A model generated the notes under the pieces. That model was given only the letters and a program-made list of their open reading frames with translations. It did not search any database and was not told the origin of the DNA. 64,000 bases of DNA from Planctomycetia bacterium (lineage in GTDB: Bacteria; Planctomycetota; Planctomycetia; Gemmatales; Gemmataceae). Made by a program: the position numbers and the translations under genes. Location: assembly GCA_005808665.1 (NCBI GenBank), contig SYLG01000007.1:54298-118297 (forward strand), written 5' to 3'. This document shows positions 2,645 through 40,929 of this stretch, in pieces (position 1 is the stretch's first letter; the number at the start of each line of letters is the position of its first letter).

Positions 2645-4048
2645 ATGAATGGTCGTTTTCCCAATTTTGCGAAACCATCCCACGACCCGTCCCTTTTGAG
2701 ACGAGACTGGCTTCGGTTGGCTGCTACTGTCGGGGTTGCCCCGGCTGTGGGTCATTGGGTTCAGTCAGGCGATTTATCCGGGTCAACCAATCCTCAGGGC
2801 CCAGGATTTGGAAAAGCCAAATCAGTTATCATGCTATTTCATTTGGGTGGGCCCCCACAACATGAAACTTGGGACCCAAAACCAAATGCCCCAGAGGCCA
2901 TTCGAGGGGAATTCAAGCCCATTTCCACCACCGTACCGGGTATTCAATATTCCGAATTGATGCCTTTGGCCAGTCGACATGCCCAGGACATTTGCGTCCT
3001 CAGGTCTTGTACCACGGCCGATAATGCCCACTCGTCAAGCGGGTACTGGATGCTAACCGGGGTACCGCATCAACCGCTTCAAACCGAAAATGCCAAAGTT
3101 GGTTTCCCTAATGATCACCCTTCCTTTGGTGCCTTGATTCGCCATTTGAAGCCTGATCAGCCAGGGATTCCTTCCTCAATTACATTGCCAGACCACATTT
3201 GGAACACGGGTGGTATTCCTTGGCCTGGTCAAGGTGGGGGGTTTTTAGGCAGGGTTAATGACCCCTGGTTGGTCCATTGTGACCCCTCTCAAAAGGATTT
3301 CGAAATAGCTGGCCTAAGCCATTCTGAAGCAATGGCGGCGGATCGAATCATCGATCGTGCCGGTTTGTGGGAAACCATGCAAAAACGCTTTTCCCATGCA
3401 GGATTGGCCCAAACACGGCAAATGAGGGATGCGTTTGCAATGATTCGTAGCGGGCCCATTGCCAAGGCATTTAAAATTCATGAAGAAAGCGACAAAACCC
3501 GTGAGCGATATGGATCAAATCGATGGGGCCAAAGCCTGCTTTTGACAAGGAGGTTGGTGGAGGCTGGGGTTCCCTTTATCCAGGCCAATTGGACCAGACT
3601 TCCGGGGGACAAGGACGATTCACCTGCTTGGGACACCCACAACAAAAATGCGGAACGGTGCAAGAATCACCTCCTTCCCATTGGCGATCGGGCGTATTCC
3701 GCACTTTTGGAAGATTTAAAAATGCGTGGACTTCTGGATTCAACCCTTGTCGTTTGGACAGGAGAATTTGGTCGAAGTCCGATTCACAATGGGGGAGGTG
3801 GCCGTGACCATTGGGGGCATGCCTTTTCTGGTTCCCTTTGTGGGGGAGGGATTAAGGGTGGACAGGTTCTGGGTGCAACCGATAGGCAAGGGGCGTTTGT
3901 CAAAGATGACCCTATTGCTCCCCAAGATCTTGGTGCTACCATGCTTTATGCCATGGGTATTGCCACCAAAACGGAAATTGTGGATACCTTGCAAAGGCCA
4001 ATCCCGGCGACCCGGGGAATGCCGCTGAGGAAAGCCTTTGGGATGTAA
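2645..4048 (+). CDS. DUF1501 (sulfatase-fold) protein with twin-arginine signal
   Basis: 467 aa. TAT-like LLRRDWLRLAATVGVAPAV. DUF1501 hallmarks: SVIMLFHLGGPPQHETWDPKP, WDTHNKN, WTGEFGRSP..GGRDHWG. Confidence 0.85.
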   Translation: MNGRFPNFAKPSHDPSLLRRDWLRLAATVGVAPAVGHWVQSGDLSGSTNPQGPGFGKAKSVIMLFHLGGPPQHETWDPKPNAPEAIRGEFKPISTTVPGIQYSELMPLASRHAQDICVLRSCTTADNAHSSSGYWMLTGVPHQPLQTENAKVGFPNDHPSFGALIRHLKPDQPGIPSSITLPDHIWNTGGIPWPGQGGGFLGRVNDPWLVHCDPSQKDFEIAGLSHSEAMAADRIIDRAGLWETMQKRFSHAGLAQTRQMRDAFAMIRSGPIAKAFKIHEESDKTRERYGSNRWGQSLLLTRRLVEAGVPFIQANWTRLPGDKDDSPAWDTHNKNAERCKNHLLPIGDRAYSALLEDLKMRGLLDSTLVVWTGEFGRSPIHNGGGGRDHWGHAFSGSLCGGGIKGGQVLGATDRQGAFVKDDPIAPQDLGATMLYAMGIATKTEIVDTLQRPIPATRGMPLRKAFGM

Positions 4049-4166: not shown

Positions 4167-5831
4167 ATGCGTATCCTGTTTCCGGCTTCGCTTTTGGGCC
4201 TTTTGATTGTTTGGGTCAGTTTTGGAAGAACCGATTCTTCCAAAACTTTGCCGCCAAATTCTTCCTCCAGTACAAATCGCAATGAAGCCGCAACGACCCA
4301 AGATCGTTTGCGAAGGGAATTTGACGAACTCAAACAATCGCTTTTGCGGTTAAAACAGCGCCTGGAACTCAGTCCTCGTCCAGAAGATAAGTCAAGGGCC
4401 CATGCGATTGAGGCTGCCTTGGCACTCGTTGCCAGGCAGGGAACCGATGGGAAATTCACAACTTTGGTAAAAAACCTCAGGCAGTCGGACGCCTTTGCCA
4501 ATCTGGATACCATGCAGCAGGTAATGAACAGGAATCAGGAATTGCGGGAAGACCTGCGAAAACTAATCGAGATCCTTGCAAAGGACAACCGTGAAGATCA
4601 GCTTCGTAAAGAGAAGGAAGATGCTTTAAAAACCCTTGAAAAACTTCGTGAAATCATTGGTAAGCAGGAAAGGGTCAAAGCCAACACCGATTTGGGTAAA
4701 GCTGCAAAGGAAGATTTGATCAAAGCACAAAAAAAGGTGTCTGACCAAACCAAAGAATTAGCAGGCTCCAAAGCATCCAAATCAGGAAAAGACCTCCCCG
4801 ACGGCAAGGATAAGGACGGCAAGGATAAGGACGTCAAGGAGGGGGGCAAGGAGGGGGGCAAACCAAAGGACGGGAAATCTGGCGAAAGCAAACCGGGTCA
4901 AAGCAACCCTCCCGAGGACAAAAAGCCAGACGAGTCGGCCCCCAACGAATCGGGAGAGCAGGCTCAGGCCAAAAAACAAATCAAGGAAGCCACCAAGGAT
5001 CAGGATAAAGCAGAAGATAAAATCAAAAAAGGAGACAATCCTGGTGCGTCCCAAGATCAACAACAAGCCTTGGACAAACTTAAACAAGCACAAAAAAAAC
5101 TTGAAGAACTCCTTCAGCAATTGCGCGAGGAAGAATTGAAGCAAATGTTGGCCAAATTGCAGGCCCGGTGTGAAAAATTGCTCAATATGCAAATTGCCGT
5201 GAAAACTTCCACGGAAGAATTGGATAAGGCAATTGGCTCCCTTTCGACAAAAAAACCTGGCCGTGCGGAAGACCAGAGGGGCTTGGAATTGGGGGATGCC
5301 GAGGATGCGATAGTACGGGAAGCAACTGCGGCCATTACCCTGATTGAACAGGAAGGAACCGCAATTGCCTTTGCGGAAGTATTTGGTCAGGTACGGACGG
5401 ATATGATACTGGTAGCCGGGAAATTGAAAAAAACCGAAGTCGGTGAAATCACCCAAGGGGTCGAAACGGAAATCATTGACACCCTCAAGGAAATGATTGG
5501 GGCCCTCAAAAAAGCCAGACAAGACCAAAAACCCAAGCCTAAACCCAATGAAGCGGGAAAAGGAGGGGAAAGTAACCCCAACAATGATCAAAGGCTTTTG
5601 GATCAGATCGCTGAGTTAAAAATGGTTCGGTCGTTGCAAGCAAGGCTAAATCAAAGAACAGTCGTCTACGGCAAACAATTGAATGGTGAACAACCTTCCA
5701 CTTCAACCGATTCCAAAGAACAGGAACGGATTGAAACCTTGCGAAGGGACCTTTTTGATTTGGGACAACGGCAAGTAAAAATCACCAAAGTAACCCGCGA
5801 CATGGCTCTGGGACGAAACAAGGCTCAATAA
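4167..5831 (+). CDS. Signal-anchored coiled-coil protein with K/E/D/Q-rich low-complexity centre (function unknown)
   Basis: ORF 4101..5831. I prefer ATG 4167 (MRILFPASLLGLLIVWVSFG), which has GGAGG 8 nt upstream. Long heptad-like stretches (LRREFDELKQSLLRLKQRLE; LDKLKQAQKKLEELLQQLREEELKQMLAKLQ). Central region KDGKDKDGKDKDVKEGGKEGGKPKDGK. Confidence 0.75.
   Translation: MRILFPASLLGLLIVWVSFGRTDSSKTLPPNSSSSTNRNEAATTQDRLRREFDELKQSLLRLKQRLELSPRPEDKSRAHAIEAALALVARQGTDGKFTTLVKNLRQSDAFANLDTMQQVMNRNQELREDLRKLIEILAKDNREDQLRKEKEDALKTLEKLREIIGKQERVKANTDLGKAAKEDLIKAQKKVSDQTKELAGSKASKSGKDLPDGKDKDGKDKDVKEGGKEGGKPKDGKSGESKPGQSNPPEDKKPDESAPNESGEQAQAKKQIKEATKDQDKAEDKIKKGDNPGASQDQQQALDKLKQAQKKLEELLQQLREEELKQMLAKLQARCEKLLNMQIAVKTSTEELDKAIGSLSTKKPGRAEDQRGLELGDAEDAIVREATAAITLIEQEGTAIAFAEVFGQVRTDMILVAGKLKKTEVGEITQGVETEIIDTLKEMIGALKKARQDQKPKPKPNEAGKGGESNPNNDQRLLDQIAELKMVRSLQARLNQRTVVYGKQLNGEQPSTSTDSKEQERIETLRRDLFDLGQRQVKITKVTRDMALGRNKAQ
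4800..4858 (+). repeat. In-frame tandem micro-repeats inside the coiled-coil gene (2 x GACGGCAAGGATAAG, 2 x CAAGGAGGGGGG)
   Basis: Read directly: 15-mers at 4800-4814 and 4815-4829, and 12-mers at 4835-4846 and 4847-4858. They encode DGKDK-DGKDK and KEGG-KEGG. Confidence 0.85.
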
Positions 5832-5868
5832 AAAAGTTGAAGGTTCAAGGAAAGGGAACGGTTCCGCT

Positions 5869-6999
5869 ATGAAAAAAAACAATTCCCGAAGAAGGACCAT
5901 TTCTTGGGTCATCCTTGTTGCAATGGGATTAGGATCTGGAAAAGGCGGGTTTGTTTCTGGGGCAGATGTTGATCCAAAACCGGTCCCCGTAGGACAGGCA
6001 GGCTTTGGAATGTTGGTTGAACAACCAATGGATTCCCTCAAAAAACAGGCCCGGGAATATTTGACAAGTCGTGGCCTTTGGAAACCTGCTTTCGAACCAT
6101 TACTGGAACAAGGTTTCTCACGAGAATTGCCCATTTCAGACAAATTTGCCGATGCCTTAGCCTTGGGTGATGCACGAATTGAAGTGTTGCTGTCGGAAGC
6201 CAGGAATAATGACTCCTTGCCTCCGGCCGGGGTTCCTGCTTTTTTTAAGGATAAAAAATATCCTGAATTTGTTCGGGCCAATGTTGGTGTATCCTTTGCA
6301 AGGGCCCTTAGCCTACGGCGCATCCATGAAGAAGCTCTTGAAACTCTAGGCCTGTTCGCCGTGGAGAAAGTGGCAGACCCTGGAACCTATTTGTACCACC
6401 GGGCTGTATCCGAACATGCGTTAATGATGAAAAACGAAGCTACATCCTCAATAGACCGACTGCTCCAGGATGTTCCCAACCTGCCCGAGCGGTACCGGAT
6501 GGTTGGCATGCTTTTGTATTATGATTTGACCACCTGGAAAGAAAAGGACCTTTCATGGATCAGTCGTAAAATGGAAATGATCCAAAGGCGCCTTGAGGTA
6601 ACAAGGGGTGGGAAAACAACCCAGAAAATCCAAAAAGAGGTTGTTGCCCGTTTGGATGAAATGATAAAAGAGATGGAAAATCAACAAAAGGAGTCATCGT
6701 CCAGCAATCAGGGCAACTGTCCGGACGGAGCACCCTCACAAGGACAACCCGGGAATAATGCCCAACCAATGGAACCTGCCAAGGATAGCAGACCGGGAGG
6801 GGTATCGGGGCAGGGTGTGGTTGATTCCAAACGGGTCAAGGAATTAGCCAGTGTTTGGGGAAAATTGCCTGAGAAAGACCAGGCCAAGGCATTGGTTGAA
6901 CTAACCCGCAATGCCCCCCCCAAATACCGGGAAGCCATAGAACTGTACTTTAAGAAATTGAGCCAGACCATGCCGACCCCGGCAACCAAAAACCCTTGA
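5869..6999 (+). CDS. Secreted helical protein of unknown function (C-terminal PPKYREAIELYFKKL motif)
   Basis: 376 aa. N-terminal basic and hydrophobic segment (RRRTISWVILVAMGLGSG). Shares a QKEVVARLDEMIKEMENQQK motif followed by a low-complexity tail with the preceding gene (ETEIIDTLKEMIGALKKARQDQK). Confidence 0.7.
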   Translation: MKKNNSRRRTISWVILVAMGLGSGKGGFVSGADVDPKPVPVGQAGFGMLVEQPMDSLKKQAREYLTSRGLWKPAFEPLLEQGFSRELPISDKFADALALGDARIEVLLSEARNNDSLPPAGVPAFFKDKKYPEFVRANVGVSFARALSLRRIHEEALETLGLFAVEKVADPGTYLYHRAVSEHALMMKNEATSSIDRLLQDVPNLPERYRMVGMLLYYDLTTWKEKDLSWISRKMEMIQRRLEVTRGGKTTQKIQKEVVARLDEMIKEMENQQKESSSSNQGNCPDGAPSQGQPGNNAQPMEPAKDSRPGGVSGQGVVDSKRVKELASVWGKLPEKDQAKALVELTRNAPPKYREAIELYFKKLSQTMPTPATKNP

Positions 7000-7060
7000 A
7001 TTTCATATTCCCCATTGGGACAACTGGCCCTATCCTCGTTATGCAATAGTTGGAGGTTTC

Positions 7061-8263
7061 TTGGATTTTTGCACCCTGTCCCTAGTAATGCTTTTTTGCC
7101 AAACCCAGCCTACTTTAAAGCTGACGGATGGATCGGCAATCTCTGGAACGATTCTTTCCGGAGAAACCACCAGGTGGGTCTTGCAATCGGGTCCGGTAAC
7201 CAAAACTTTTCCTATGGAACAGGTTTTGAGTCTTGAGTTTTCTGCCAAACCCCAAATCCCGGTTACCTATTGTGAAGCAATATTAATTGATGGAACCAGG
7301 ATCTTGGGTAAATCCTACCTCATAAGGGGGGGGAACTTGGAATGGGTCACACCGAATCTTGACCAATGGGTGATTCCCTTGGGTAAAGTTGCCAGTCTAC
7401 TTCGACCCGGACACGACGCAACGGCTCAGACCGATTGGAAATCCCGGTTGGTTCGGCCGCGTAAACGGGATGTATTGGCAATTGTAAGAAAGGATCCGGA
7501 TCACCCGGAAAAATCCTCGATTAGTGGGCTCGAAGGAACATTAGGTGTTGGATCGAGTGATGGGATTTCCATTGGGTTCACCCCGGCGGGTGGCAAAACG
7601 GAACTACCCGTTCCTCAAGCGAATTTACATGGAATGCTTTGGCTGCGGGGACCGGATGCTACTCTTTTGGCACCACTTTGCCGGTTAGAAGATACTGGTG
7701 GGCAAATTCTTGAAATCGGTAAAATTCGGTCCGCCTCCTCCAATGCGATTGCCATAACGCTTGTTTGTGGAATCGATCTTGACCTTCCCATGGAAAGGGT
7801 TTTGAGGTTGGATTTTAGCCGAGGCAAACTTGCATGGCTTTCGGATATGGATTGGCTGGAAGGGGCAGTTACCGGTTTTGATGATCGTTTGGACCGGGTA
7901 AGGCGAAACACAAATCCCGATGGTGGTGGAATCAAAATGGGAGGTGTGCCTTTCCAACGCGGATTGGCAATGCCCTCTGCTACCTCGCTTTCGTACGCCT
8001 TGGGTGGTGAATATCGCGAATTGCAGGCTTTGGTTGGTTTGGATGATGCCACTGGAATTGCCGATGGGTTGGTGCGTTTGCGGGTAGAGGGGGATGGTAA
8101 AACATTAGCCAAAGTGGAAATCTCACGAAGCAACCGGTCCAAGCCTGAAAAATTGGCTGTAAACCTTAAAGATGTCCAAGTGCTGAAACTCTTGGTGGAA
8201 AGCACAGATCTTTCACCATTTGGAAGGCACATTATACTTGCCAATCCAAAAATTTCCAGGTAA
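7061..8263 (+). CDS. NPCBM/NEW2 (carbohydrate-binding-module-like) domain protein
   Basis: 400-aa ORF. The start is uncertain: TTG at 7061 or ATG at 7088. The C-terminal ~150 aa match my memory of the NPCBM domain: WLSDMDWLEG, GGVPFQRGLAMPSATSLSYALGGEYRELQALVGLDD, LRVEGDGKTLAKVEI, LKLLVEST..FGRHIILANPKI. Confidence 0.7.
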   Translation: MDFCTLSLVMLFCQTQPTLKLTDGSAISGTILSGETTRWVLQSGPVTKTFPMEQVLSLEFSAKPQIPVTYCEAILIDGTRILGKSYLIRGGNLEWVTPNLDQWVIPLGKVASLLRPGHDATAQTDWKSRLVRPRKRDVLAIVRKDPDHPEKSSISGLEGTLGVGSSDGISIGFTPAGGKTELPVPQANLHGMLWLRGPDATLLAPLCRLEDTGGQILEIGKIRSASSNAIAITLVCGIDLDLPMERVLRLDFSRGKLAWLSDMDWLEGAVTGFDDRLDRVRRNTNPDGGGIKMGGVPFQRGLAMPSATSLSYALGGEYRELQALVGLDDATGIADGLVRLRVEGDGKTLAKVEISRSNRSKPEKLAVNLKDVQVLKLLVESTDLSPFGRHIILANPKISR

Positions 8264-8267
8264 TATT

Positions 8268-10061
8268 ATGTCACCTTTTGTTATATGGTCTGTAGTAGCA
8301 TCTTATACTATCCTCTTTCAGCCGGCACAAATTCCACCTGCGGTAGTCATTCGCCTTGAGAATGATCGAATAGCCTTGGTTAAAAAAATTACCCCGCCTA
8401 CCGTAGCAGTAGTAAGTGGTGGCGGTTCGGGAGTATTGATTTCTTCTGACGGTTATGCTTTTACGAATTATCATGTTGTGGGTAATGGTGGCCCTGCCAT
8501 CAAATGTGGGTTACCGGATGGCAAATTATATGATGGTGTCATTGTTGGTTTGGACAAGATGGGAGACCTGGCCTTGATCAAGTTAATTCCCCCCCAACCG
8601 AATTTCTCCTTTCCTTTTGCGGTTCTGGGGGATTCCGATCAAGTTTATCCCGGGGATTGGGCGGTTGCGTCCGGCAACCCTTTTCTTTTGGCAAGCGATT
8701 ACACACCTACCGTTACTTTTGGCCTGATCAGCGGAACGCATCGGTACCAATATCCGGAAAGGGGAATGTTTGAATATACCGATTGCATCCAGATGGATGC
8801 GTCCATTAACCCTGGAAATTCCGGGGGACCACTTTTCAATGGAAAAGGAGAATTGATTGGAATCAATGGACGGGGCTCTTTCGATAAACGGGGACGGGTT
8901 AATTCAGGGGTTGGTTATGCCATTAGCATAAACCAATGCAAAAAGTTTTTGGGATCTTTAAAAGCGGGCCTTCGTTTAAATCATGCCGGATTAGGGGCTT
9001 TGGTTTCCACCGTTGACGATTCTGCGGTTTCGCGCGTTTTGGTAAATCAGGTCTTTCCAAGTGATGCCCTTAGGCGGGGAATCCAGCCGGAAGATCAAAT
9101 CATCCGGTTTGCTGGTCGGCCCATCACCACAGTCAATCAGTTCAAAAATATATTGGGAACCATTCCAGCTGGTTGGAAGGTTCCCATTGGAATCCGAAGG
9201 ATTACCGAAGCTGGCGAAACGGTTCAACTGGATGTTTTGGTTCGGTTGATTTCAGGGGAAAGGCAAGAGACGCCGGTACAGGCTGATCAACCCTCAGGTC
9301 GCCCAGGGCAACCCAAGCCACCCTTAAAACCTATTCCCGCGGTGGTAAAAGCGGTTTATGAACAAAAAGAGAATTTTGCCAATTACCATTTCAACAAAAT
9401 CCTCAGGGAAAACGCTTTGGTTAAGCTCCAGGCTCAACTCAAATTATTGGGGCAAAATACACCTTGGCAACTCCAGGGCCAGGGCACATTCCAAAATAAA
9501 AACCTTGCTGGTGGTTGGAGTTTAATGATTAATCCTGCACAACCAGCAGAGGGAAACAACCCGGCAACCATGGATTCAGTGGGCCTGAATATTGAAGGCA
9601 TTGATTTTCGGTTGGAACCTCTCAAGGCTGATTTGGATTCCAGGGCCCTGCGCGATCCTACCGGGAGTGGTGGCTTATTGGTTGCTGCTTTTCACCTAAA
9701 GCAATTGCTTTGTCTGGGGGCAAAAGGGTTTCCGGGAGAAGGGTGCACCCATGGGGGTGTAGAGCCATATTGGCCTCCCATGGAAGCAGGACAATCCTTT
9801 GATCAGCGAAAATCCTTGATGGCGGAGGTTATTAAAACGACACTTGGGGGTGTTTCTTCCCGCTGGTATATTGAACCGGAAACCGGATTCTTATTGTCGG
9901 TGGAGGTTTCAGTGGACCCCGAAGAGGATCCCTGTGAAATTCATTTTTCCAATCCCCAGGCGGACCGTATGGGGCGACTCCTTCCCCGTGATTGGATTAT
10001 CATTCATGGTGATAAAACATTTGCCAAGCTCAAAGTGGTGGATTGGAAAGTTAACCCATGA
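8268..10061 (+). CDS. HtrA/DegP-family serine protease (S1C) with PDZ domain and ~260-aa uncharacterised C-terminal domain; triad intact
   Basis: ORF 8220..10061. ATG 8268 lies 4 nt after the upstream stop. Triad motifs: FTNYHVV, GDLALIKL, NPGNSGGPLF (Ser codon 8820-8822). PDZ-like segment RGIQPEDQIIRFAGRPITTVNQF. Confidence 0.85.
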   Translation: MSPFVIWSVVASYTILFQPAQIPPAVVIRLENDRIALVKKITPPTVAVVSGGGSGVLISSDGYAFTNYHVVGNGGPAIKCGLPDGKLYDGVIVGLDKMGDLALIKLIPPQPNFSFPFAVLGDSDQVYPGDWAVASGNPFLLASDYTPTVTFGLISGTHRYQYPERGMFEYTDCIQMDASINPGNSGGPLFNGKGELIGINGRGSFDKRGRVNSGVGYAISINQCKKFLGSLKAGLRLNHAGLGALVSTVDDSAVSRVLVNQVFPSDALRRGIQPEDQIIRFAGRPITTVNQFKNILGTIPAGWKVPIGIRRITEAGETVQLDVLVRLISGERQETPVQADQPSGRPGQPKPPLKPIPAVVKAVYEQKENFANYHFNKILRENALVKLQAQLKLLGQNTPWQLQGQGTFQNKNLAGGWSLMINPAQPAEGNNPATMDSVGLNIEGIDFRLEPLKADLDSRALRDPTGSGGLLVAAFHLKQLLCLGAKGFPGEGCTHGGVEPYWPPMEAGQSFDQRKSLMAEVIKTTLGGVSSRWYIEPETGFLLSVEVSVDPEEDPCEIHFSNPQADRMGRLLPRDWIIIHGDKTFAKLKVVDWKVNP

Positions 10062-11173
10062 GGCTTCATTTTTTGACATTGGTTTTGTTTGGTGGGGTTG
10101 TTTCAGGCCTTCCCGGACAAGAATCGCTGTCCCAAGTATTTAATAACACCTACCCCAAGGTGGTAAAGATTTATGGTGCCGGGGGAATTCGAGGCTTGGC
10201 GGGTTATGGAACGGGTGTGGTAATCTCGGCGGATGGCTTGGTCCTTACGGTGAATAATCATCTGATGGATGGAGGTGACCTTGTTGCTCACCTTCATGAT
10301 GGAACCCGGGTTCCCGTAAAGGTATTGGCCCGGGAACCAGAATTGGATACCGCCCTTTTGAAATTGGGAGGTGCTAAACAGGCCTTGGATGATTTGCCCT
10401 ATTTCGATTTTGAGGAAGCTTATAAAAAGCCAATTGCAGGTCCAGGAGTGTCCGTATTGGCTTTTTCCAATGCCTTTCAAATTGCCACGCGTGAGGAACC
10501 GGTCTCCATAATGCAGGGCAACATTGCGAGTTATGGGCGACTGTTTGGAAGAATTGGGATCTTTGACATTCCTTTTTCAGGTAATGTCTATGTCGTGGAT
10601 GCAATTACCAATAACCCGGGGGCTGCCGGGGGAGCACTCACCGATAGAAATGGCCAACTTTTGGGCCTGGTTGGTCGGGAAGTTCGCAATGAATTGACCA
10701 ACACATGGGTTAATTATGCCATTCCCGTGCAAGCTCAAGTGGATGTCCGTGGTCCAAACGGAATGTCCCGAATCGGAATTATGGACCTGGTTCGAAAGAA
10801 GGAATCGTACCGCCCAGCCCCAAAAGTTGAAAAACCGGTAGATGTGGAACCCTACACCGGAATCCGGTTGGTTTCCAATTTGATTGATCGGACTCCCCCA
10901 TTTATCGAAGAGGTTTTTCCGGGGTCTCCTGCCGCAATTGCCGGGATTAAGCCGGATGACCTGATTGTCTATGTGGATGGGATTCCCGTACCCTCCATTA
11001 ACACCTACCGGGAGCTATTGCTCAGGTATAAGCCAGGAGATAAAATCCGGGTGGATGTTCGAAGGCGTGATCAACTGGTTGGGTTGGATATTACCCCCTT
11101 GAAAGCACTTGAGGGATCGAAACCACCTTTCCGTATACCCTTGATCACCCAACCTTCCGGAGGTCGTCCTTGA
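10058..11173 (+). CDS. HtrA-like protein with PDZ domain; nucleophile Ser replaced by Ala (probable pseudoprotease)
   Basis: 371 aa. ATGA overlap with the upstream stop. Signal peptide MRLHFLTLVLFGGVVSG. Keeps LTVNNH and ELDTALLKL but reads NNPGAAGGAL (Ala codon 10625-10627) where GNSGGPL is expected. PDZ segment: GSPAAIAGIKPDDLIVYVDG. Confidence 0.8.
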   Translation: MRLHFLTLVLFGGVVSGLPGQESLSQVFNNTYPKVVKIYGAGGIRGLAGYGTGVVISADGLVLTVNNHLMDGGDLVAHLHDGTRVPVKVLAREPELDTALLKLGGAKQALDDLPYFDFEEAYKKPIAGPGVSVLAFSNAFQIATREEPVSIMQGNIASYGRLFGRIGIFDIPFSGNVYVVDAITNNPGAAGGALTDRNGQLLGLVGREVRNELTNTWVNYAIPVQAQVDVRGPNGMSRIGIMDLVRKKESYRPAPKVEKPVDVEPYTGIRLVSNLIDRTPPFIEEVFPGSPAAIAGIKPDDLIVYVDGIPVPSINTYRELLLRYKPGDKIRVDVRRRDQLVGLDITPLKALEGSKPPFRIPLITQPSGGRP

Positions 11174-13200
11174 TTCTTTCCTTGGTAAATACGGCAAGTT
11201 TTTTTATAATTGGAGGGTTGTTGGCCCAAAGTCCAATCCAAAACGCCATTCAGGTTGCGGTTAATCGGGTGGCCCCGTCTGTGGTTACCATAGAAACCTC
11301 CGGCGGAAGTGAAGTAATTTCTCTCGGACGGGGACCCCGTGACCAGGATAAACTTTTACGAAAAGGGCTCGGTGCCACGACCGGAGTGATCGTCCATCCT
11401 GATGGTTGGATCCTTTCCAGTGCCTTTAATTTTGCAAACAAGCCAACTAGCATAATCGTTTCCATCAACCAGGCCAAGCATATTGCCAGGATTGTTGGCA
11501 CGGACACGACCCGAAGTATTGCCCTTTTGAAAATTCAGGTTCCAACTCCCCAGGTGGCAGAAGTTGCTCCGGTATCACAATTGCAACCAGGTCAAACCGT
11601 AATGGCATTGGGTCGGACCCTTTCCGGGTCCGAATCGCCTCCCTCGGTCAGTGTTGGAATAATAAGTGCGCTTAACCGGATTCAGGGTAAGGCGATCCAA
11701 ACCGATGCGAAAATTTCCCCGGTCAATTATGGAGGTCCCCTTGTGGACCTTGCCGGAAGGGTCGCCGGCATTTTGGTCCCACTTTCGCCACAAGGCGAGG
11801 GCGAAGGAGCTGGAATTGAATGGTATGACTCGGGAATAGGATTTTCGGTTCCGCTTGAGCATTGCCTCAAAATCCTGCCAAAATTAATGGATGGGAAAGA
11901 CCTCAAAAGGGGAATGCTAGGAATCCTCCTGAAAGGCGATCCGTTGATGGACCCACCTGAGGTGGGAACAGCACAAACCGGGCTTCCTGCCCAAAAAGCA
12001 GGAATGCAGAATGGGGACCTGATTGTGTCCGTTGGTGGAAATCGAGTCGAAAATCAAACCCAGTTTCAGCGCGAAATGTCAAAATATTATTCGGGAGACA
12101 GGGTAAATCTTGTTTACAAGCGTGGAGATAAAGAGGTTTCGGTTTTAGGATTGGAGTTAATTAGTCCATCCAAAAGCCAGGGGCAAGCAAAACTGGGTAT
12201 CTATCCGGTACGGGATGATGTGGGTTTGGGAATTCTGATCCGACATGTTAATCCCAAGGGAGCTGCGGATTTGGCTGGATTGGCATCGGGGGATCGTATT
12301 TTGGCGGCCAGGCCTTTCATGGTTCTACCTGCCGGAAGCCCTGCAATTCCCGCTTTAATACCCCCACCCAAATTTGGACGAGCGGAAATGGTTCAAGCCA
12401 TGGACCGTATATTGCCTGGCATGGAAATGGAATTACTGGTTCAAAAAAATGGCCAAAAATCGAGCAAAAGCTTTAAAGTAAAATCGGATTTGGGTGAGGA
12501 AGGCCTTGCGGATTTAAACCCTACCACAGCAAGTAATCGACCCATTCAGGGGGATCGGCCCAGTGACAAAAAACCCCAAACAGGATTGATCAGCGGAACA
12601 AATAATGCCCAAGATCGTGTATGGAAGGCTTTTTTGCCAAAGGGGGCAGGGCGTGAAATGCATGGCTTGGTTGTATGGTTTCACCCCCCCGGAAGGGGGA
12701 AAGACAATGACCTTGAAGAAATTGTCAACCTTTGGGAAATGCAACTCAATCGGTACCGGTTGGTCCTTTTGATGCCGCAATCGGATGCGGAAACGGGGTG
12801 GAATGTGTCTGATTCAACTTTCATTAATGAATCGGTCAAGGCAATTCAGGAAATGGCAAATATCGATCCAAACCGAATAGTGGCCCACGGTTTTGCCCAG
12901 GGAGGCCAAATGGCAGGGTACCTTGGTTTTTCCCAGAAAGGCCTTTACAAAGGGGTTGCTGCCGTCGGGGCAATTCCTTCCAACCTGCCCCGCGAGGCCC
13001 CCGATTCCGGTCTCCAATTTTTCTTGTCAACCGGGGATCGCGATCCGCAATTGGAGGCTATCAAAGCGTCCCAAAAATCATTACGGGGATTAGGCATTCC
13101 CTGTTTCCTTCACGGTATGCCTCAAAGCGGTCAGCAATATCTTGACCTTGGGGGCCTTGAATCACTCAACCGTTGGATGGAAGGGCTGGATGGCCTATGA
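11170..13200 (+). CDS. Triad-less HtrA-like domain + two PDZ domains + C-terminal alpha/beta-hydrolase-like domain lacking the nucleophile Ser
   Basis: 676 aa. TTG start overlapping the upstream TGA (TTGA). Reads SSAFNF (Phe 11425-11427 at the His position), RSIALLKI (Ser 11515-11517 at the Asp position) and SPVNYGGPL (Tyr 11728-11730 at the Ser position). PDZ segments: LPAQKAGMQNGDLIVSVGG and GAADLAGLASGDRILAA. Esterase-like tail: HGLVVWFHPPG, IVAHGFAQGGQMAG (Ala 12895-12897). Confidence 0.8.
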   Translation: MILSLVNTASFFIIGGLLAQSPIQNAIQVAVNRVAPSVVTIETSGGSEVISLGRGPRDQDKLLRKGLGATTGVIVHPDGWILSSAFNFANKPTSIIVSINQAKHIARIVGTDTTRSIALLKIQVPTPQVAEVAPVSQLQPGQTVMALGRTLSGSESPPSVSVGIISALNRIQGKAIQTDAKISPVNYGGPLVDLAGRVAGILVPLSPQGEGEGAGIEWYDSGIGFSVPLEHCLKILPKLMDGKDLKRGMLGILLKGDPLMDPPEVGTAQTGLPAQKAGMQNGDLIVSVGGNRVENQTQFQREMSKYYSGDRVNLVYKRGDKEVSVLGLELISPSKSQGQAKLGIYPVRDDVGLGILIRHVNPKGAADLAGLASGDRILAARPFMVLPAGSPAIPALIPPPKFGRAEMVQAMDRILPGMEMELLVQKNGQKSSKSFKVKSDLGEEGLADLNPTTASNRPIQGDRPSDKKPQTGLISGTNNAQDRVWKAFLPKGAGREMHGLVVWFHPPGRGKDNDLEEIVNLWEMQLNRYRLVLLMPQSDAETGWNVSDSTFINESVKAIQEMANIDPNRIVAHGFAQGGQMAGYLGFSQKGLYKGVAAVGAIPSNLPREAPDSGLQFFLSTGDRDPQLEAIKASQKSLRGLGIPCFLHGMPQSGQQYLDLGGLESLNRWMEGLDGL

Positions 13201-13973
13201 AATGCCATCGATTCGGTTTCCTGGGTGGGTTTGTCCTGGTGGGATGTTGTTCAGGGCCTTGCAATTCCAATCCAATTTCGACAACCAAAGAAGGCAGTGT
13301 TGCCACGGTTTCGGAATCCAGGGTAGCAAACCAGGGAACGCCCATTCCACCAAAAACGCTGTCTATGCCTAAAACCGTTCAGGTTGGCCCGGGGGTGTTT
13401 CTCGAGGTTGATGGGGACATTCGAACCGTGGTTGTTAGTGCCAAGGTGGTTCGGCGCGAAGGATTTTTGGAATTACTCCTTTGTCGGGAAAAAACCAAGG
13501 AACATGAAGCCATCCTGGCTGCCCCTGTGGATGCCAGGGATGTTCATAGTGCTTTGCTTTCGGCCGGCCTGAAACCTGGCAGTCCGGTTCAATTTTTGCC
13601 AGAGTATAAGGCGGCAACCGGAAATAGGTTGGAAATCCGATTGCGGTTCAAGGATAGCCTGGGCCAAAATCATGAGGTTTTGGCCAAAGATTGGATCAAA
13701 AAAACAATGGTTGACCAGGCTCTCGAGGGTGATTGGGTTTTTTCTGGCAGTCGGCTGGTTGCTAATTCACTAGACCCCAAAGCACCCCCTTATTTCCTAG
13801 CTAATGATGGGGACCTGATCAGTATTAGCAATTTTGAATCCGCTTTAATGGATCTTGCTATTAAAGTTTCCAGTGCAAATGGAGAACTATCCTTTGAACC
13901 TTGGGAAAAGCGTATCCCTGAAATTGGCACGCCGGTAGCAGTCCTCATACGGTCGGCAAAAAATCCTCATTAA
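13197..13973 (+). CDS. Lipoprotein, tentatively YdjY-like domain
   Basis: ORF 13173..13973. I prefer ATG 13197, which overlaps the upstream TGA (ATGA). Lipobox-like FVLVGCCSG. The YdjY-like call (EGFLELLLCREKTKEHEAILAAPVDARDVHSALLSAGLKPGSP) comes from memory only. Confidence 0.6.
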   Translation: MKCHRFGFLGGFVLVGCCSGPCNSNPISTTKEGSVATVSESRVANQGTPIPPKTLSMPKTVQVGPGVFLEVDGDIRTVVVSAKVVRREGFLELLLCREKTKEHEAILAAPVDARDVHSALLSAGLKPGSPVQFLPEYKAATGNRLEIRLRFKDSLGQNHEVLAKDWIKKTMVDQALEGDWVFSGSRLVANSLDPKAPPYFLANDGDLISISNFESALMDLAIKVSSANGELSFEPWEKRIPEIGTPVAVLIRSAKNPH

Positions 13974-13986
13974 TATACATTAATTT

Positions 13987-15225
13987 CTAATTTTGACTTT
14001 TTTCGATTTTTGTTTTTGATTTGTAAACAAGAATTGATTCGGTATCATAAACCAACCAAATCCCTAATAATGTAGATCCTATTGGTGCTGATGCGTAAAT
14101 AGGTGGAAAATAAGGTGAAAAAATACCAGTAAGTTCTCTCCATGATAGGAATATTATGCAAATGAATGAAGCGTTTACAAGTGCCCGATTCCCCCTTGCC
14201 CGTTGATGTACCCAATAGAGCATGGGGGCAATTATCCCATAGGTTGCCAACTCTGTTGCCGGGCCAAAAACCATTAACCATAGCAATCCAATGCACAGGG
14301 TGCGGGGATACCATTCTTCCTTTGGAATCCTCCAGTTTGCCCAGCGAATGACAAAAAACAAAACCCCAAGTCCGGTGCCCATTTGCAACAATTGGTAGCA
14401 TTTGGGTGGGGAACAATCCCAAAATAATGGGTTGAATGGTCCCTCTCTCATCCACTCGGCCAGGGTCAGAATGAAGTACCATCCATCACGGTAACCAGGC
14501 CACCGAAGGTCCTGGCTTGATTTCAAATGGTGCCACCATTCCTGGTATTGCCACCAAACGATTTCCGGTGGCCTGGTCAAAAAAGGTATCAAGAATGCGA
14601 TTAGTCCAAATAATAGCAAACGCCATGTCATGGTCCATGGTCTTGCCACCATGATTAGGAAAATCACGGGAAGTATTGTGGATTTTAATACCAAACCCAC
14701 GGTGAAAAATAGTGCCCCCCGCATGAATCTGGATTCCCAAATATCCATGGTTCCTAAAACCAGCAAGGAACCGATAAGGGCATTGGATTGGTGGTTCCAG
14801 AGGCCGCTTAGTGCGCAAAAAAGCATTATTAGAGAACCACCGGACCAAATTGGGGATTCTGGCCAATATTTTTCAGCCAAACGCCCCCAAGCCACAAGGA
14901 GGCCAAGAATGGAGATCCAACTCCAAAGAATGGGTCCAATAATTGGCCCCAATTGAACAAAAGGAGCGAGCAGGAATATTGCCGTTGGGGAATAACGGAA
15001 AAAATCAACCCCAGGATATTTGGCATAGAGGGATTGGTCAAGCCACCAATGTTGTACTCCTGTTTGGTAAACTCCAAAAACGGTTTGGCGGTTTGGTAAA
15101 AACACCCCTTTTAGGGTTAGTGCCAAGGCAAGGACGAACCAAATAAAAAGGCAAAAACGCAAACGGAGTGAATCCTGAGTCCCTCCATTTATTAGTAACA
15201 TTTCTTTGAAAGAAAACCTTTGCAA
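13987..15225 (-). CDS. Polytopic membrane glycosyltransferase, GT87/DUF2029-like
   Basis: 412 aa with about 10 hydrophobic segments. The N-terminal region (FGVYQTGVQHWWLDQSLYAKYPGVDFFRYSPTAIFLLAPF) resembles DUF2029 mannosyltransferase-type proteins. GC is noticeably lower than in neighbouring genes. Confidence 0.6.
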   Translation of the reverse strand: MQRFSFKEMLLINGGTQDSLRLRFCLFIWFVLALALTLKGVFLPNRQTVFGVYQTGVQHWWLDQSLYAKYPGVDFFRYSPTAIFLLAPFVQLGPIIGPILWSWISILGLLVAWGRLAEKYWPESPIWSGGSLIMLFCALSGLWNHQSNALIGSLLVLGTMDIWESRFMRGALFFTVGLVLKSTILPVIFLIMVARPWTMTWRLLLFGLIAFLIPFLTRPPEIVWWQYQEWWHHLKSSQDLRWPGYRDGWYFILTLAEWMREGPFNPLFWDCSPPKCYQLLQMGTGLGVLFFVIRWANWRIPKEEWYPRTLCIGLLWLMVFGPATELATYGIIAPMLYWVHQRARGNRALVNASFICIIFLSWRELTGIFSPYFPPIYASAPIGSTLLGIWLVYDTESILVYKSKTKIEKSQN

Positions 15226-15352
15226 TTCACATACCTTATTTGAAAATAGTATTAAAAATCGTTTTGTTATTTATTTAATATTAATGTTGAAATTAAATTA
15301 AGAATACTTTAATAAAATATCAAAACAAATGCCAAACACTTAACATATATTA
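15226..15352 (-). promoter_or_regulatory. Extremely AT-rich intergenic spacer upstream of the GT87-like gene (putative promoter/UP region)
   Basis: 127 nt at roughly 20% GC (ttatttgaaaatagtattaaaaatcgttttgttatttatttaatattaatg...), against about 48% for the window. No specific promoter motif is claimed. Confidence 0.3.
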
Positions 15353-16351
15353 TTAAAGCGGTTCACCAATCCATAATTCCATACCTTTACATGGCTGAAT
15401 TTCCAACTCCCCGGAAGAGGCAGGGATCAAAACCGTGTCCCCTAATTTAAGGGTATCACACCTTCCCTGGTATATTCCCTTTCCCTCCCCTCCAACAACC
15501 ACCAGGATTTTTGCTTTTCCATCCCCGCCAAGGGAAAAGGCTTTGGTTTCACGAATGTAGGATAACCGAAAAAATGGACATTCCACCAAAATTACATGGC
15601 AAGAGTCCGTTAAGGTTCCAAATCCCGGGATGGAAACCAATTCAGAGGGTTTATTATTCCAATGAATCGAGGCAATGGATTCCTCCAAATGTAATTGCCT
15701 TGGCTTCCCGGTTGGGTCAACCCGATTCCAATCGAAAAGTCTAAATGTGGCATCGGAGGTTTGTTGAATTTCAGCCATGAGGACACCACCACCAACCGCA
15801 TGTATGGTTCCTGCCGGTAAAAACAGGAATTGGCCTGGTTTTGGGGTAAAACAGTGTAAACAATCGGAAAGGGTTCCCAATGCCAATGCTTCCCGCACGG
15901 TGGCTTCACAAACACCCGCTTTAAGCCCAGCCCAAATGCGGCTTTCAGGACTTGCCTCAAGGATAAGCCACGCTTCGGTTTTGCTTTCTTCTGAGGGTAG
16001 GAGTTTTTTAACGACGGTACTATCTGGATGGACCTGGACAGAAAGCCAATCCGCCGCATCCAGCCATTTAACCAAAAGGGGAAAACGCCCATGGTGGGTT
16101 GGAACCGATTTCCCCAAAAGGCTTTCAGGCATTTCTGCCATCAAAGTTCTTAATGATCCATTAACAATACCCGCCGACCAAGGGCTCGGGGCAATCCGGC
16201 TTTCCGAGGCGGGATGGTCACTTAATTCCCAGGATTCTCCATATTGGGCAGGAGCTTGGAAATTTCGTCCCAAAACGCTGTGAAGCCGTTGGCTTCCCCA
16301 AACCATTGGACGAACCCAAGGCTCAAACCGTAACGGAGGAATGGTTTTCAT
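15353..16351 (-). CDS. manA: Class I mannose-6-phosphate isomerase (cupin)
   Basis: 332 aa. Motifs: PMVWGSQRL, YGESWELSDHP, FPLLVKWLDAADWLSVQVHPD, KTEAWLILEA, LPAGTIHAVGGGVLMAEIQQTSDATFRLFDWNR. Confidence 0.85.
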   Translation of the reverse strand: MKTIPPLRFEPWVRPMVWGSQRLHSVLGRNFQAPAQYGESWELSDHPASESRIAPSPWSAGIVNGSLRTLMAEMPESLLGKSVPTHHGRFPLLVKWLDAADWLSVQVHPDSTVVKKLLPSEESKTEAWLILEASPESRIWAGLKAGVCEATVREALALGTLSDCLHCFTPKPGQFLFLPAGTIHAVGGGVLMAEIQQTSDATFRLFDWNRVDPTGKPRQLHLEESIASIHWNNKPSELVSIPGFGTLTDSCHVILVECPFFRLSYIRETKAFSLGGDGKAKILVVVGGEGKGIYQGRCDTLKLGDTVLIPASSGELEIQPCKGMELWIGEPL

Positions 16352-16380
16352 GCTGATTGCCTGGTTCTGAACAACAAAAA

Positions 16381-17136
16381 TTATGCTGCTTTGGTTTGGC
16401 TCCGGACCGATTCCTGATAGGCAAGCACGACTTCATTGATCGGGCCGATCTGTTTAACCGATCCGTGGTCCATCCAAAGGCCCCGTGTGCAAAAATTGCG
16501 AATGGAAATAAGGTCATGGCTAACCATGATAACCAATTGGGCCCGATCCATCATTTCGCGCATTCTTTTGATCGCTTTTTGTTGAAAGGCAAGGTCCCCT
16601 GCGGAAAGGACCTCATCAATCAAAAGGATTTCCGGGTCAATGGAGGTGGCAATGGCAAAGGCAAGTCGAACCATCATGCCAGCACTGTAATAACGAACGG
16701 GCATATTCAGGAAATCGCCCAATTCCGTGAAATCAGCGATAGCTTGGACCTTTTCCTTGAGGGTTGAGGGTGTTTCCCCTTGCAAATAGGACCGATAGGC
16801 AATGTTTTCCCAGCCATTCGCTTCGGGTTCAAAACCTAAATGGATGTCAAAAAGTGAGGAAATTTTGCCAATGACTTCGCGTTTACCGGAAGATGGTCGG
16901 TAAATTCCCGCAAGCATTTTCAACAAGGTGGATTTGCCAGCCCCATTATGGCCAAGAATTCCTAATCGTTCGCCTTTGGCTACTTCAAAGGAAACCTCTT
17001 TTAGGGCCTTGACCTCCATTTGGGGGTAGTTGCCTTTGCGGAACATTTGGCCAACCAGAAACTCTTTCAGGGTCAATACCTTGTTCTGGCGCACCTTAAA
17101 GGTCAGGCTTACCTGGTCCAAAACAACTAGAGCCAT
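16381..17136 (-). CDS. wzt: Polysaccharide/O-antigen-type ABC exporter, ATP-binding subunit (Wzt/TagH/KpsT-like; no C-terminal glycan-binding domain)
   Basis: 251 aa. Walker A GHNGAGKST, signature YSAGMMVRLAF, Walker B LLIDEVLSAGD. It sits next to an ABC-2 permease gene. Confidence 0.85.
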   Translation of the reverse strand: MALVVLDQVSLTFKVRQNKVLTLKEFLVGQMFRKGNYPQMEVKALKEVSFEVAKGERLGILGHNGAGKSTLLKMLAGIYRPSSGKREVIGKISSLFDIHLGFEPEANGWENIAYRSYLQGETPSTLKEKVQAIADFTELGDFLNMPVRYYSAGMMVRLAFAIATSIDPEILLIDEVLSAGDLAFQQKAIKRMREMMDRAQLVIMVSHDLISIRNFCTRGLWMDHGSVKQIGPINEVVLAYQESVRSQTKAA

Positions 17137-17174
17137 GTCGCGCCTCCCTGCGCCGACCTTTTTATTTCAGAAAA

Positions 17175-17957
17175 TCACAGGTGAAGTATGACCTTGTCTT
17201 CTTTGGCCCGCAATGCCAAACATCCAACCAAACCCAAGAGCATGGAAATTCCCATTGCAAGCCCCCAGGTCAGGGGATCGGCTATTTTTCCTTCAAGCAT
17301 GGGAATCCGGATTAGATCCAAAAAGGGAACAACAGGGTTGATATGTACCATCCAGCCTAGTCCACGATCTATCAACAGGGAACTTGGGTACATGATTGGC
17401 GAAAGGTAAAACAGGATTTGAAAGCCAATTTCTGCCAAATGGCGGGTGTCGCGGAAATGGATGTTTGCCAAACCAAACAAAACCGAAACAGCCCAACCGG
17501 CTACCAGAAAAATAGGAAGGGAAACCAGCAGGCTAAATATGGGTAGAATCCCTGTCCACCCCCGAAGGGCCAAGGATAAGGCAATTACCAAAAAGGAAGC
17601 TAAAACCAGATGAAATCCATGGGATAGGGTGTTTCGCAAGGGATAAATTGCCATCGGGGCAGGATATTGCCGAATGTAACTTTCTGCCCTTAAAAAACAT
17701 TGACACCCTTCAAGGGTGGAGTGCAAAAAGAAATTCCAAACCGCAATGCCCGCCATGACATAGGGTGCATAAAAATGAATATCCTGATTTAGTAGGGTGG
17801 CAAACACCGTGCAAAAGATCACCGTCATTGCAATGGGGTTAAGCAGCGACCAACCCATTCCCAAGACCGATCCCCGATATCTAGCCCGGAGGTCCATCCG
17901 TACCAGGGAAAACCAAAACCAACGGCAAACCCAAATCTGCGATAAATAGGCCTTCAT
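17175..17957 (-). CDS. wzm: ABC-2 type polysaccharide exporter permease (Wzm/TagG-like)
   Basis: 260 aa with 6 predicted TM segments. Typical N-terminus: LVRMDLRARYRGSVLGMGWSLLNP. Located immediately upstream of the wzt-like gene. Confidence 0.8.
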   Translation of the reverse strand: MKAYLSQIWVCRWFWFSLVRMDLRARYRGSVLGMGWSLLNPIAMTVIFCTVFATLLNQDIHFYAPYVMAGIAVWNFFLHSTLEGCQCFLRAESYIRQYPAPMAIYPLRNTLSHGFHLVLASFLVIALSLALRGWTGILPIFSLLVSLPIFLVAGWAVSVLFGLANIHFRDTRHLAEIGFQILFYLSPIMYPSSLLIDRGLGWMVHINPVVPFLDLIRIPMLEGKIADPLTWGLAMGISMLLGLVGCLALRAKEDKVILHL

Positions 17958-26804: not shown

Positions 26805-27451
26805 TGTCCCACCTCCTTTTTAAGGGAAATTACGGGTCCGTTGGAGGGTTTCATTGGGTCGGTTTTTTCTTTAGGAGTTGGCTTGGGATTGGGTAAAATA
26901 GGGGGTAAAGGATCCACGGGTTTTGAATCCTCAAAGTTATCCCCCAGTTGATTTGGTACCAAGCTGCTCATCGCAGCATTTGTATCATCGGGAACAATCA
27001 ATACAGGAACCAGAAGGATCTCCCGGTAGTTGCTATCCTTTGCTTGTAAGGTCCCTTCCCGATAGCCTTCCATGTAGTCTCTAACCTGTTGAGCCCCTTC
27101 CGGAGTGAAACTGCTGTAGCGCCAATATTTTCTGGGGGGTGTTGCAGGAGGCACGCATTTTCCACCAGCGTCTAAGTACGAGTGAAATCCATCAAGAAAC
27201 CCATGTTTAAAAGCCGGATTTTGATCCAGTCCCGGGGTTAAATCTTTGTACTCTTGCCATGCTTTTTTGGCATAAGTGTGCATCCTTTTTGTCAAGTGAT
27301 ATGAATCTGTCCAAAGGTGAAATTCATTGACGGTAGTTTTGTGGACAAGGGTTGCCAAATTGCAACCAACCGATCCAAATAAAAGGCAAAAACCCGCCAA
27401 GGGTATTTTGCTTCGATAGAATCCTGAGTATCGATTCATAGGCCCCATCAA
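26801..27451 (-). CDS. Hypothetical lipoprotein co-transcribed with the Wza-like gene
   Basis: 216 aa. Its stop overlaps the downstream ATG (ATGA). Lipobox LLFGSVGC. Pro-rich C-terminus. No family recognised. Confidence 0.6.
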   Translation of the reverse strand: MMGPMNRYSGFYRSKIPLAGFCLLFGSVGCNLATLVHKTTVNEFHLWTDSYHLTKRMHTYAKKAWQEYKDLTPGLDQNPAFKHGFLDGFHSYLDAGGKCVPPATPPRKYWRYSSFTPEGAQQVRDYMEGYREGTLQAKDSNYREILLVPVLIVPDDTNAAMSSLVPNQLGDNFEDSKPVDPLPPILPNPKPTPKEKTDPMKPSNGPVISLKKEVGQ

Positions 27452-27458
27452 CTCCCAA

Positions 27459-28208: not shown

Positions 28209-28315
28209 AGTTGGGACCCCGATTTGTGGTAAATATTTTCATGAATGGGGTTGCTGGACTTTTCTGGCTCCTATACACTAAGTACGGGTGGTGAGAAAAT
28301 TTTGGGAGGATGGAT

Positions 28316-28594: not shown

Positions 28595-28621
28595 AATTCC
28601 ACTCCAGAATTAGTTGAAAAA

Positions 28622-40884: not shown

Positions 40885-40929
40885 GGAAATTTACGCAGGA
40901 TCTCATTTTGAGCGGGAGAAAAGGGTCCT

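Follow-up and report, generated by a model that had tools for sequence, protein, structure and literature searches.

The 64,000-nucleotide (nt) stretch of DNA analysed here, referred to as the window, comes from a Planctomycetia bacterium of the family Gemmataceae (GenBank assembly GCA_005808665.1, contig SYLG01000007.1, positions 54,298 to 118,297 of the forward strand; coordinates below are those of the window). Seven open reading frames (ORFs) on the + strand, denoted G1 to G7, occupy 4167–13973. Six of them, G1–G6, recur in fixed order in relatives, and in most of these they lie directly downstream of MoxR, DUF58, BatA and vWA genes. This linkage of a conserved G1–G6 module to a MoxR-DUF58-BatA-vWA block is the main new finding.

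G1 (4167–5831) encodes a predicted exported, all-helical protein of 554 amino acids (aa) that belongs to no Pfam or NCBIfam family, and G2 (5869–6999) a predicted exported, TPR-like helical protein of 376 aa that belongs to no Pfam family. G3 (7061–8263, TTG start) specifies a 400-aa protein, likewise predicted to be exported, with a C-terminal NPCBM/NEW2 domain (PF08305). The next three products are HtrA-like. G4 (8268–10061) is a putatively active serine protease of the HtrA/DegP type (Trypsin_2, triad present); G5 (10058–11173, 371 aa; Trypsin_2, PDZ_6) is a predicted pseudo-protease with a PDZ domain; G6 (11170–13200, TTG start, 676 aa; Trypsin_2, PDZ_2) combines a predicted pseudo-protease and a PDZ region with an alpha/beta-hydrolase-like domain, a putative pseudo-esterase at residues ∼ 478–676 (12601–13200; Abhydrolase_2, NF050058, TIGR01840). 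G7 (13197–13973) encodes a 258-aa YdjY-domain lipoprotein (NF040466).

The genes are tightly packed. Direct reading of the junctions gives gaps of 37 nt (G1/G2), 61 nt (G2/G3) and 4 nt (G3/G4), followed by start/stop overlaps of ATGA (G4/G5), TTGA (G5/G6) and ATGA (G6/G7). Together with the ORF list this reproduces the seven same-strand genes, gaps and overlaps reported in the first-pass annotation, an earlier model-made reading of the letters. GGAGG Shine–Dalgarno motifs precede the ATG of G1 and the TTG of G3. Scanning the cluster for promoters and terminators returned as many sites as shuffled sequence and speaks neither for nor against a single transcript. A search for RNA sequencing runs returned none. 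Each of the seven N-termini contains a hydrophobic 12-mer (Kyte–Doolittle mean at least 1.89), the N-termini of orthologs are hydrophobic too and G7 has the lipobox LVGC; by this crude hydrophobicity test the earlier claim that every product has a signal peptide, anchor or lipobox holds, and all seven products are probably exported.

Conservation of the arrangement was followed by a scan of one genome per species anchored on a G2 alignment, with genes mapped by tblastn. The 78 loci that it found come almost entirely from metagenome-assembled genomes (MAGs) labelled Gemmataceae, Gemmatales or Planctomycetota. Sixty are cluster-type loci and the remaining 18 contain a stand-alone G2 paralog. Where at least 8 kb of downstream sequence was available, G3–G6 kept the same order and orientation in 38 of 39 cluster-type loci, the single exception being an insertion that pushes the remaining genes out of range. 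G1 lies 5′ of G2 in all 43 cluster-type loci with upstream room. Synteny persists down to protein identities of ∼ 36% for G2 and ∼ 25% for G3, and around a distant G2 relative (P0508) the order G2-NPCBM-HtrA is kept, with 4-nt overlaps. Carriers of the module are dozens of freshwater and soil Gemmatales planctomycetes, and the DNA of the window itself occurs in freshwater metagenomes. G7 and the DUF1501 gene upstream of G1 are confined to few or the closest relatives, and therefore the conserved unit is G1–G6. G1–G6 very probably form one functional unit. The neighbourhood check suggested for the cluster thus turned out strongly positive, whereas the proposed seven-gene set stands for its first six members and fails for G7. 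The literature search found no paper describing this arrangement, in keeping with the earlier view of an experimentally uncharacterised conserved set.

One clade carries a ∼ 5-kb insertion between G4 and G5 (L048, 9442–14440; also L025, L036, L037 and L049). It contains a DUF1559/N-methyl pseudopilin-like gene and a Ser/Thr protein kinase-WD40 fusion. Both genes are common in planctomycetes, and we rejected the insertion as part of the module since it is probably unrelated.

Of the 31 cluster-type loci whose upstream flank is 6 kb or longer, 21 have a gene for a ∼ 1030-aa protein directly 5′ of G1; this protein adjoins a MoxR block, which therefore lies directly upstream of the module. The block was defined by a BatA-anchored metagenome scan and by Pfam analysis of one locus, L098. 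Its order is a ∼ 1600-aa PQQ-beta-propeller/TPR protein (PQQ_2/TPR in L098), a ∼ 410-aa prenyltransferase-like protein, MoxR, DUF58, BatA, vWA and the ∼ 1030-aa protein. The ∼ 410-aa product is SQHop_cyclase_C-like in L098, i.e. squalene-hopene-cyclase-like with a prenyltransferase fold. MoxR matches AAA_3 (4e-64) with a secondary match to bpMoxR (9e-12) and has a classical P-loop, GVPGLAKT. The DUF58 protein (3.5e-45) has 311 aa and matches DUF58 and VWA_2 alone; the BatA protein (∼ 950 aa) carries the BatA N-terminal domain (PF07584, 3.8e-12); and the vWA protein of relatives (∼ 1000–1100 aa) matches VWA at 5e-6. MoxR, DUF58 and BatA are present in every one of the 31 BatA-anchored loci whose upstream flank reaches 6 kb or more, most of which have all seven genes, and G1–G6 follow downstream in many BatA-anchored loci. 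Most relatives thus carry a supercluster of roughly 13 genes, of which G1–G6 are the distal half. The first-pass annotation had seen a candidate for an undescribed system here; the literature search turned up no description of the cluster, but it is not free-standing, being in 21 of 31 relatives the distal part of this supercluster.

In a related freshwater Gemmataceae MAG the BatA gene (EXR99_04805) and G1–G6 (EXR99_08740) occupy separate loci. No BatA homolog on OZ245717.1, the 8.8-Mb chromosome of the window's closest complete relative, was among the best 120 matches listed. Since the block is often adjacent, absent from the window and unlinked in the EXR99 MAG, we regard G1–G6 as the distal module of a Bat-like supercluster from which it can detach. 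The freshwater lineage of the window seems to have separated the two blocks, and it has added a YdjY gene after G6.

The two genes that open the seven-gene block, for the beta-propeller/TPR and prenyltransferase-fold proteins, span 507–6465 in L098 and are found likewise in L084, L163 and most BatA-anchored loci. An architecture of beta-propeller and alpha-solenoid has been discussed for the 'membrane-coat-like' proteins of planctomycetes.

Exactly one HtrA of the set, G4, appears to be catalytically competent. Aligned to the structure of Thermotoga maritima HtrA (1l1j), its predicted triad is H69/D100/S185, in the motifs TNYHVV, GDLALIKL and GNSGGPL; in orthologs TN[YFW]HV, GD[VLI]A and GNSGGPL are invariant in 44 of 44 aligned sequences. 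G4 matches Trypsin_2 at 5e-30 and HtrA, HhoA and DegP entries of the PDB down to 3e-35. The putative PDZ domain (∼ 242–323) scores below the Pfam cut-off (PDZ_2, 6e-4; 20.5 versus 27 bits), and alignments to DegP and DegQ chains run through residues ∼ 312–333, spanning the PDZ1 region. The C-terminal extension of ∼ 270 aa matches no family.

G5 (Trypsin_2, 4e-17; PDZ_6, 7e-10) has Ala for the catalytic Ser in the window (NPGAAGG), and Ala, Gly or His takes this position in every listed variant (45 aligned sequences); the His is also lost in some orthologs. G6 (Trypsin_2, 1e-18; PDZ_2, 3e-13) has all three residues replaced in the window (His to Phe, Asp to Ser, Ser to Tyr), with SSAFNF in place of TNYHVV, R(S/M)(I/L) in place of GD(L/V) and NYGGP in place of NSGGP. 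Its orthologs have Tyr at the Ser position in 36 of 36 aligned sequences, Phe or Tyr for His, and no Asp. G5 and G6 lack the full triad and, judged by their residues, are homologs with an HtrA fold but not proteases. The G6 C-terminus matches Abhydrolase_2 marginally (7e-5; 23.2 bits versus a cut-off of 23), NF050058 (6e-10) and TIGR01840 (9e-5), and the G6 ortholog of L003 also has a weak Abhydrolase_2 match. The nucleophile elbow reads GFAQGG in the window and GMDQGG, GMG[IV]GG or GFAQGG in orthologs, with Ala, Asp or Gly for Ser and no listed variant with Ser; because G-x-S-x-G is missing, the domain is classed as a pseudo-esterase. The pseudo-protease domains of G5 and G6 are as conserved as the live domain of G4 (column identity 0.6–0.84 for the protease-like part of G5), which argues for retained pseudo-enzymes rather than decaying genes. 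Their inactivation appears ancient and conserved, the active sites being lost throughout the sampled orthologs. One active and two inactive HtrA paralogs had been noticed before, and this reading agrees with the 44 intact G4 triads, the missing Ser of G5 and the three missing residues of G6; the esterase-like domain of G6 and the age of the inactivation had been overlooked.

The window contains a second HtrA pair on the + strand, at 39781–40884 and 40930–42231. The first, which includes a PDZ domain, looks active (TAGHV, DIDSGL, GDSGGP). Its partner is degenerate, with Cys for Ser (SECGGP) and the His motif lost; the PDZ domain of this partner sits between two protease halves, and it ends in a K/E-rich coiled-coil tail.

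G1 has an N-terminal signal or anchor and two helical regions (∼ 36–199 and 263–547) common to its orthologs, which are 44–93% identical. The K/D/G-rich linker between them (residues ∼ 202–260, nt ∼ 4770–4946) is disordered in the AlphaFold model and ranges from ∼ 40 to > 150 residues across orthologs by expansion of KDGK/GKD-type repeats (alignment columns ∼ 215–370). The K/D/E/G low-complexity centre described earlier is real, and its variability suggests a length-tunable spacer. The AlphaFold2 model consists of long helices (mean predicted local distance difference test score, pLDDT, 65), and a fold search gave no match at E ≤ 0.001. C335 (nt 5169–5171) is the sole Cys of the mature region in 18 of 18 homologs. 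One homolog, P0222, carries a precomputed match to PF13779, which we take to be DUF4175; a rescan of 18 members at E ≤ 1 gave none and the link was dropped.

G2 has a TPR-like helical repeat core (residues ∼ 50–280), a Gly/Pro/Asn loop that is disordered in the AlphaFold model and holds the invariant motif NxGxCPxG, and a C-terminal three-helix region (WGKLPEK...YFKKL). C284 (nt 6718–6720), within this motif, is invariant in 17 of 17 sequences; it and C335 of G1 are possible partners in an intermolecular disulfide or possible metal ligands. The model (pLDDT 73.5) retrieved generic TPR matches alone (best E 0.064), and some Joint Genome Institute (JGI) records name G2 homologs 'TPR repeat protein'. 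Neither G1 nor G2 falls into a Pfam family even at permissive thresholds. The G2 family numbers at least 568 representative clusters (50% identity) at E ≤ 1e-30, a figure that rises to 1450 with the looser limit of E ≤ 1e-10, and homologs are abundant in Planctomycetota metagenome bins. The proposed remote-homology and structure searches thus gave no clear link to a characterised system, only generic TPR matches for G2 and nothing meaningful for G1. That G2 is a distant relative of G1 could not be upheld. BLASTP aligned the two over 32 aa (E 0.014) and hhalign gave a probability of 40% over one ∼ 40-residue motif, at best a shared motif, so homology is not established and is not claimed.

The stand-alone G2 paralogs (e.g. 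L022, 9818–11077) are 45–57% identical to G2 of the window. They occur beside a cluster copy in at least eight genomes (L009, L012, L019, L022, L032, L055, L057 and L063, with others listed), and across the 18 loci they have no constant neighbourhood. An association with ABC-exporter, GldG-like (ABC_transp_aux) and DUF4340 genes was seen in L022 and L080 only and was rejected as not general.

G3 stands directly after G2 in all complete loci, with orthologs 25–76% identical. Its designation as an NPCBM protein is secure: residues 258–398 match PF08305 at 9.8e-24 (84.4 bits versus a cut-off of 23.9) over 134 of 137 model positions. The N-terminal ∼ 255 aa match no family and showed no internal repeats in a self-BLAST, and a sequence search for a relative of G3 with a solved structure found none.

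We consider it probable, if narrowly so, that G1–G6 specify an exported, probably heteromeric module of HtrA and pseudo-HtrA proteins with helical scaffolds and a glycan-binding adaptor, which works with a Bat-like MoxR-vWA complex. We hold G1–G6 as a functional unit to be far more certain than this composite, and any single mechanistic step to be much less certain. HtrA proteases are built from trimers, and G4, G5 and G6 are encoded in fixed order and translationally coupled in the window; because of this, we suggest that their products may combine in a hetero-oligomer that has one active site. G5 and G6 would be its PDZ-bearing regulatory or substrate-docking subunits, by analogy with the pseudo-protease MamO, which has no protease activity and activates MamE-dependent proteolysis (PMC4794232). 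G1, with its long helices and flexible charged linker, and the TPR-like G2 may act as scaffolds, and their invariant Cys residues could form a disulfide. The NPCBM domain of G3 could tether the assembly to a glycan of the cell wall or to a surface polysaccharide. Binding by this domain is a prediction from its family, and the coupling of glycan recognition to proteolysis put forward in the first-pass annotation is likewise a proposal. We speculate that the module processes or turns over extracytoplasmic parts or clients of the MoxR-vWA complex in a controlled way, and that it does not serve bulk quality control. The strictest form of this proposal, an obligate hetero-oligomeric HtrA complex of one live and two dead subunits (one of the latter with a dead esterase fold) that is scaffolded by G1 and G2, possibly by way of their invariant Cys residues, anchored to glycan by G3 and dedicated as processing protease to the Bat-like MoxR-vWA machine, we consider unlikely.

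MamE and MamO are the closest mechanistic precedent, in that an active HtrA and a degenerate paralog share one gene cluster. MamO also has a di-histidine metal site and a TauE-like transporter domain. G4–G6 score weakly against the NCBIfam MamE and MamO models (∼ 120 bits versus a cut-off of 800), so no orthology is implied. Here there are no magnetosome genes, and there are two pseudo-proteases, one of them fused to a pseudo-esterase.

The closest known kind of system is the Bat-type envelope operon (Bacteroides aerotolerance; MoxR-DUF58-BatA-vWA-TPR), known from Bacteroides, Leptospira and Borrelia (BB0170-0176). In most relatives the module follows directly after MoxR (AAA_3), DUF58, BatA-domain and vWA proteins, and both systems are envelope-associated with a function that is not established. 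BatB, BatC and BatE are said to be TPR-like, as is G2. The planctomycete BatA and vWA proteins (∼ 950–1100 aa) are much longer than classical BatA and BatB. The planctomycete cluster also adds the ∼ 1600-aa beta-propeller/TPR and prenyltransferase-like proteins, the two orphan helical families, the NPCBM protein and the HtrA trio, and these genes belong to no described Bat operon. The Leptospira Bat paper states that a specific function has yet to be demonstrated (PMC3557215).

Several points weigh against the proposed mechanism. The 64-kb window has no MoxR or DUF58 gene by tblastn and no BatA or vWA gene, nor any other of the seven block genes, and because of this it does not qualify as a Bat-type locus. 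Like the window, 10 of 31 relatives have no MoxR block beside the module; linkage is therefore not obligatory. Formation of a heteromer is purely inferred. The G1 and G2 models are of moderate quality (pLDDT 65 and 73.5) and matched nothing specific. Finally, all loci come from MAGs or metagenomes; the pattern scan recovered no cultured strain (Gemmata, Fimbriiglobus and Tuwongella, among others, did not appear), though it may have missed some.

Because the window and a third of the informative loci show broken linkage, a serious alternative is an autonomous HtrA envelope module with its own client (e.g. G1, or a surface or cell-wall protein), its adjacency to MoxR and BatA reflecting shared regulation or history. 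In the window, L001/L011, L006, L007, the EXR99 MAG and the 10 of 31 loci, an intact and tightly packed module stands without a MoxR block, and conversely there are blocks of BatA, vWA and the ∼ 1030-aa protein without G1–G6 downstream (L095-L107, L117, L120 and L142). We nevertheless hold this explanation to be possible but doubtful, given the direct adjacency in 21 of 31 loci over deep divergence (G2 identity down to ∼ 36%); moreover, both blocks are present in the sole unlinked genome open to checking.

Ordinary periplasmic quality control, in which the trio would be a lineage-specific DegP/DegQ-like expansion with functionally unrelated neighbours, is improbable. G4 does look like a canonical HtrA: it has a protease domain of the MEROPS S1C family with an intact triad, followed by a putative PDZ domain, and can be aligned to DegP, DegQ, DegS and HhoA structures. 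It falls below every equivalog cut-off, however (197 bits at 6e-58 against the curated cut-off of 416 for TIGR02037), and differs from DegP, DegQ and DegS in its extra ∼ 270-aa C-terminal region, while G5 and G6 lack a complete triad. Two of three paralogs are dead in every listed variant and yet conserved, in dozens of genomes the trio stands in the same order beside three families that are not proteases, and the separate HtrA pair at 39781–42231 could do the housekeeping.

The MoxR, vWA-type and giant beta-propeller/TPR proteins of the extended cluster, together with the secondary bpMoxR match (9e-12), recall the MoxR-vWA-beta-propeller ternary systems of biological conflict, which planctomycetes carry and in which the vWA protein has a C-terminal propeller of ∼ 4 blades and the P-loop reads GXXXTAKS (Kaur, Burroughs, Iyer and Aravind, 2020; PMC7159879). 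G4–G6 would then be trypsin-like peptidase effectors of a defence system. We find this very unlikely. The defining propeller on the vWA protein is absent, the DUF58 protein of 311 aa shows DUF58 and VWA_2 only, and the P-loop is the classical GVPGLAKT, with AAA_3 by far the stronger match (4e-64). PADLOC assigns G4 and G6 only to the generic protease portion of RT-Protease_XI and gives nothing for G1–G3, G5 and G7. The gene complement is stable among relatives, with no variable effector and no typical effector displacement, and the products of G1–G7 carry export signals.

We give equally little credence to a locus for glycan degradation or utilisation. NPCBM domains usually accompany glycoside hydrolases, and G3 has one; nearby on the opposite strand are a GT87 gene, a mannose-6-phosphate isomerase gene and an ABC transporter ATPase gene with a multi-pass membrane ORF. 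Against this, Pfam and NCBIfam find no glycoside hydrolase, lyase or transporter domain in G1–G7, and the glycan genes downstream have no syntenic counterparts in L001 and L003. Chance adjacency of unrelated genes is effectively excluded because 38 of 39 informative loci share the order and orientation, even where G2 identity is as low as ∼ 36%.

Clusters with MoxR and Bat-type vWA proteins are widespread in several phyla, and their molecular role has been unresolved for more than two decades. Here a large order of planctomycetes couples a Bat-like cluster to a predicted protease with a catalytic subunit, two conserved pseudo-enzymes and a putative glycan-binding adaptor. This coupling makes the Bat question testable, in terms of the substrates of G4 and the binding partners of G5 and G6. 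If the dedicated-protease reading were true, it would give a first biochemical handle on Bat-type clusters and a new kind of bacterial HtrA assembly. The analysis also defines two sizeable unnamed protein families (G1 and G2), adds another case of conserved pseudo-proteases kept beside an active paralog and is relevant to the cell envelope of planctomycetes, which is poorly understood.

The YdjY domain of G7 is well supported (NF040466, 4e-47; 160.1 bits versus a cut-off of 50), and PF27149 is listed on the L001 ortholog. Its position behind G6 is confined to the closest relatives, L007 and L001/L011, and the lipobox is kept in L007 and not in L011. G7 is a lineage-specific addition and not part of the conserved core; the earlier description of a YdjY-like lipoprotein was right in domain and lipobox. 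A literature search on YdjY gave incidental mentions and found no functional study.

Genes related to glycan biosynthesis lie around the cluster, at 13987–17957 on the − strand and at 25449–31474. They include a GT87-like glycosyltransferase gene, convergent with G7 and 13 nt from its stop, and genes for a class I mannose-6-phosphate isomerase, an ABC transporter ATPase with an adjoining multi-pass membrane ORF, a Poly_export protein and a 950-aa Wzy_C (O-antigen ligase-like) protein. None of the glycan genes near the cluster is syntenic in relatives; L001 has genes for 3′-phosphoadenosine-5′-phosphosulfate (PAPS) reductase and Rrf2 instead, and L003 one for aldose epimerase.

The DUF1501 gene G0 (2645–4048, + strand; PF07394, 5e-85) ends 118 nt 5′ of G1 and had been left as a perhaps member of the set. 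Such a gene stands directly 5′ of G1 only in L001/L011, L006 and L026, and elsewhere the place is taken by the MoxR/BatA block or unrelated genes, which points to a neighbour; G0 is probably not a member. DUF1501 is a highly multiplied planctomycete family whose genes are usually partnered by a PSCyt/PSD1 (DUF1549/DUF1553) gene. G0 has no such gene adjoining it, its neighbour being a ThuA gene on the opposite strand, and in the EXR99 MAG the DUF1501 gene is paired with a PSCyt/PSD1 gene.

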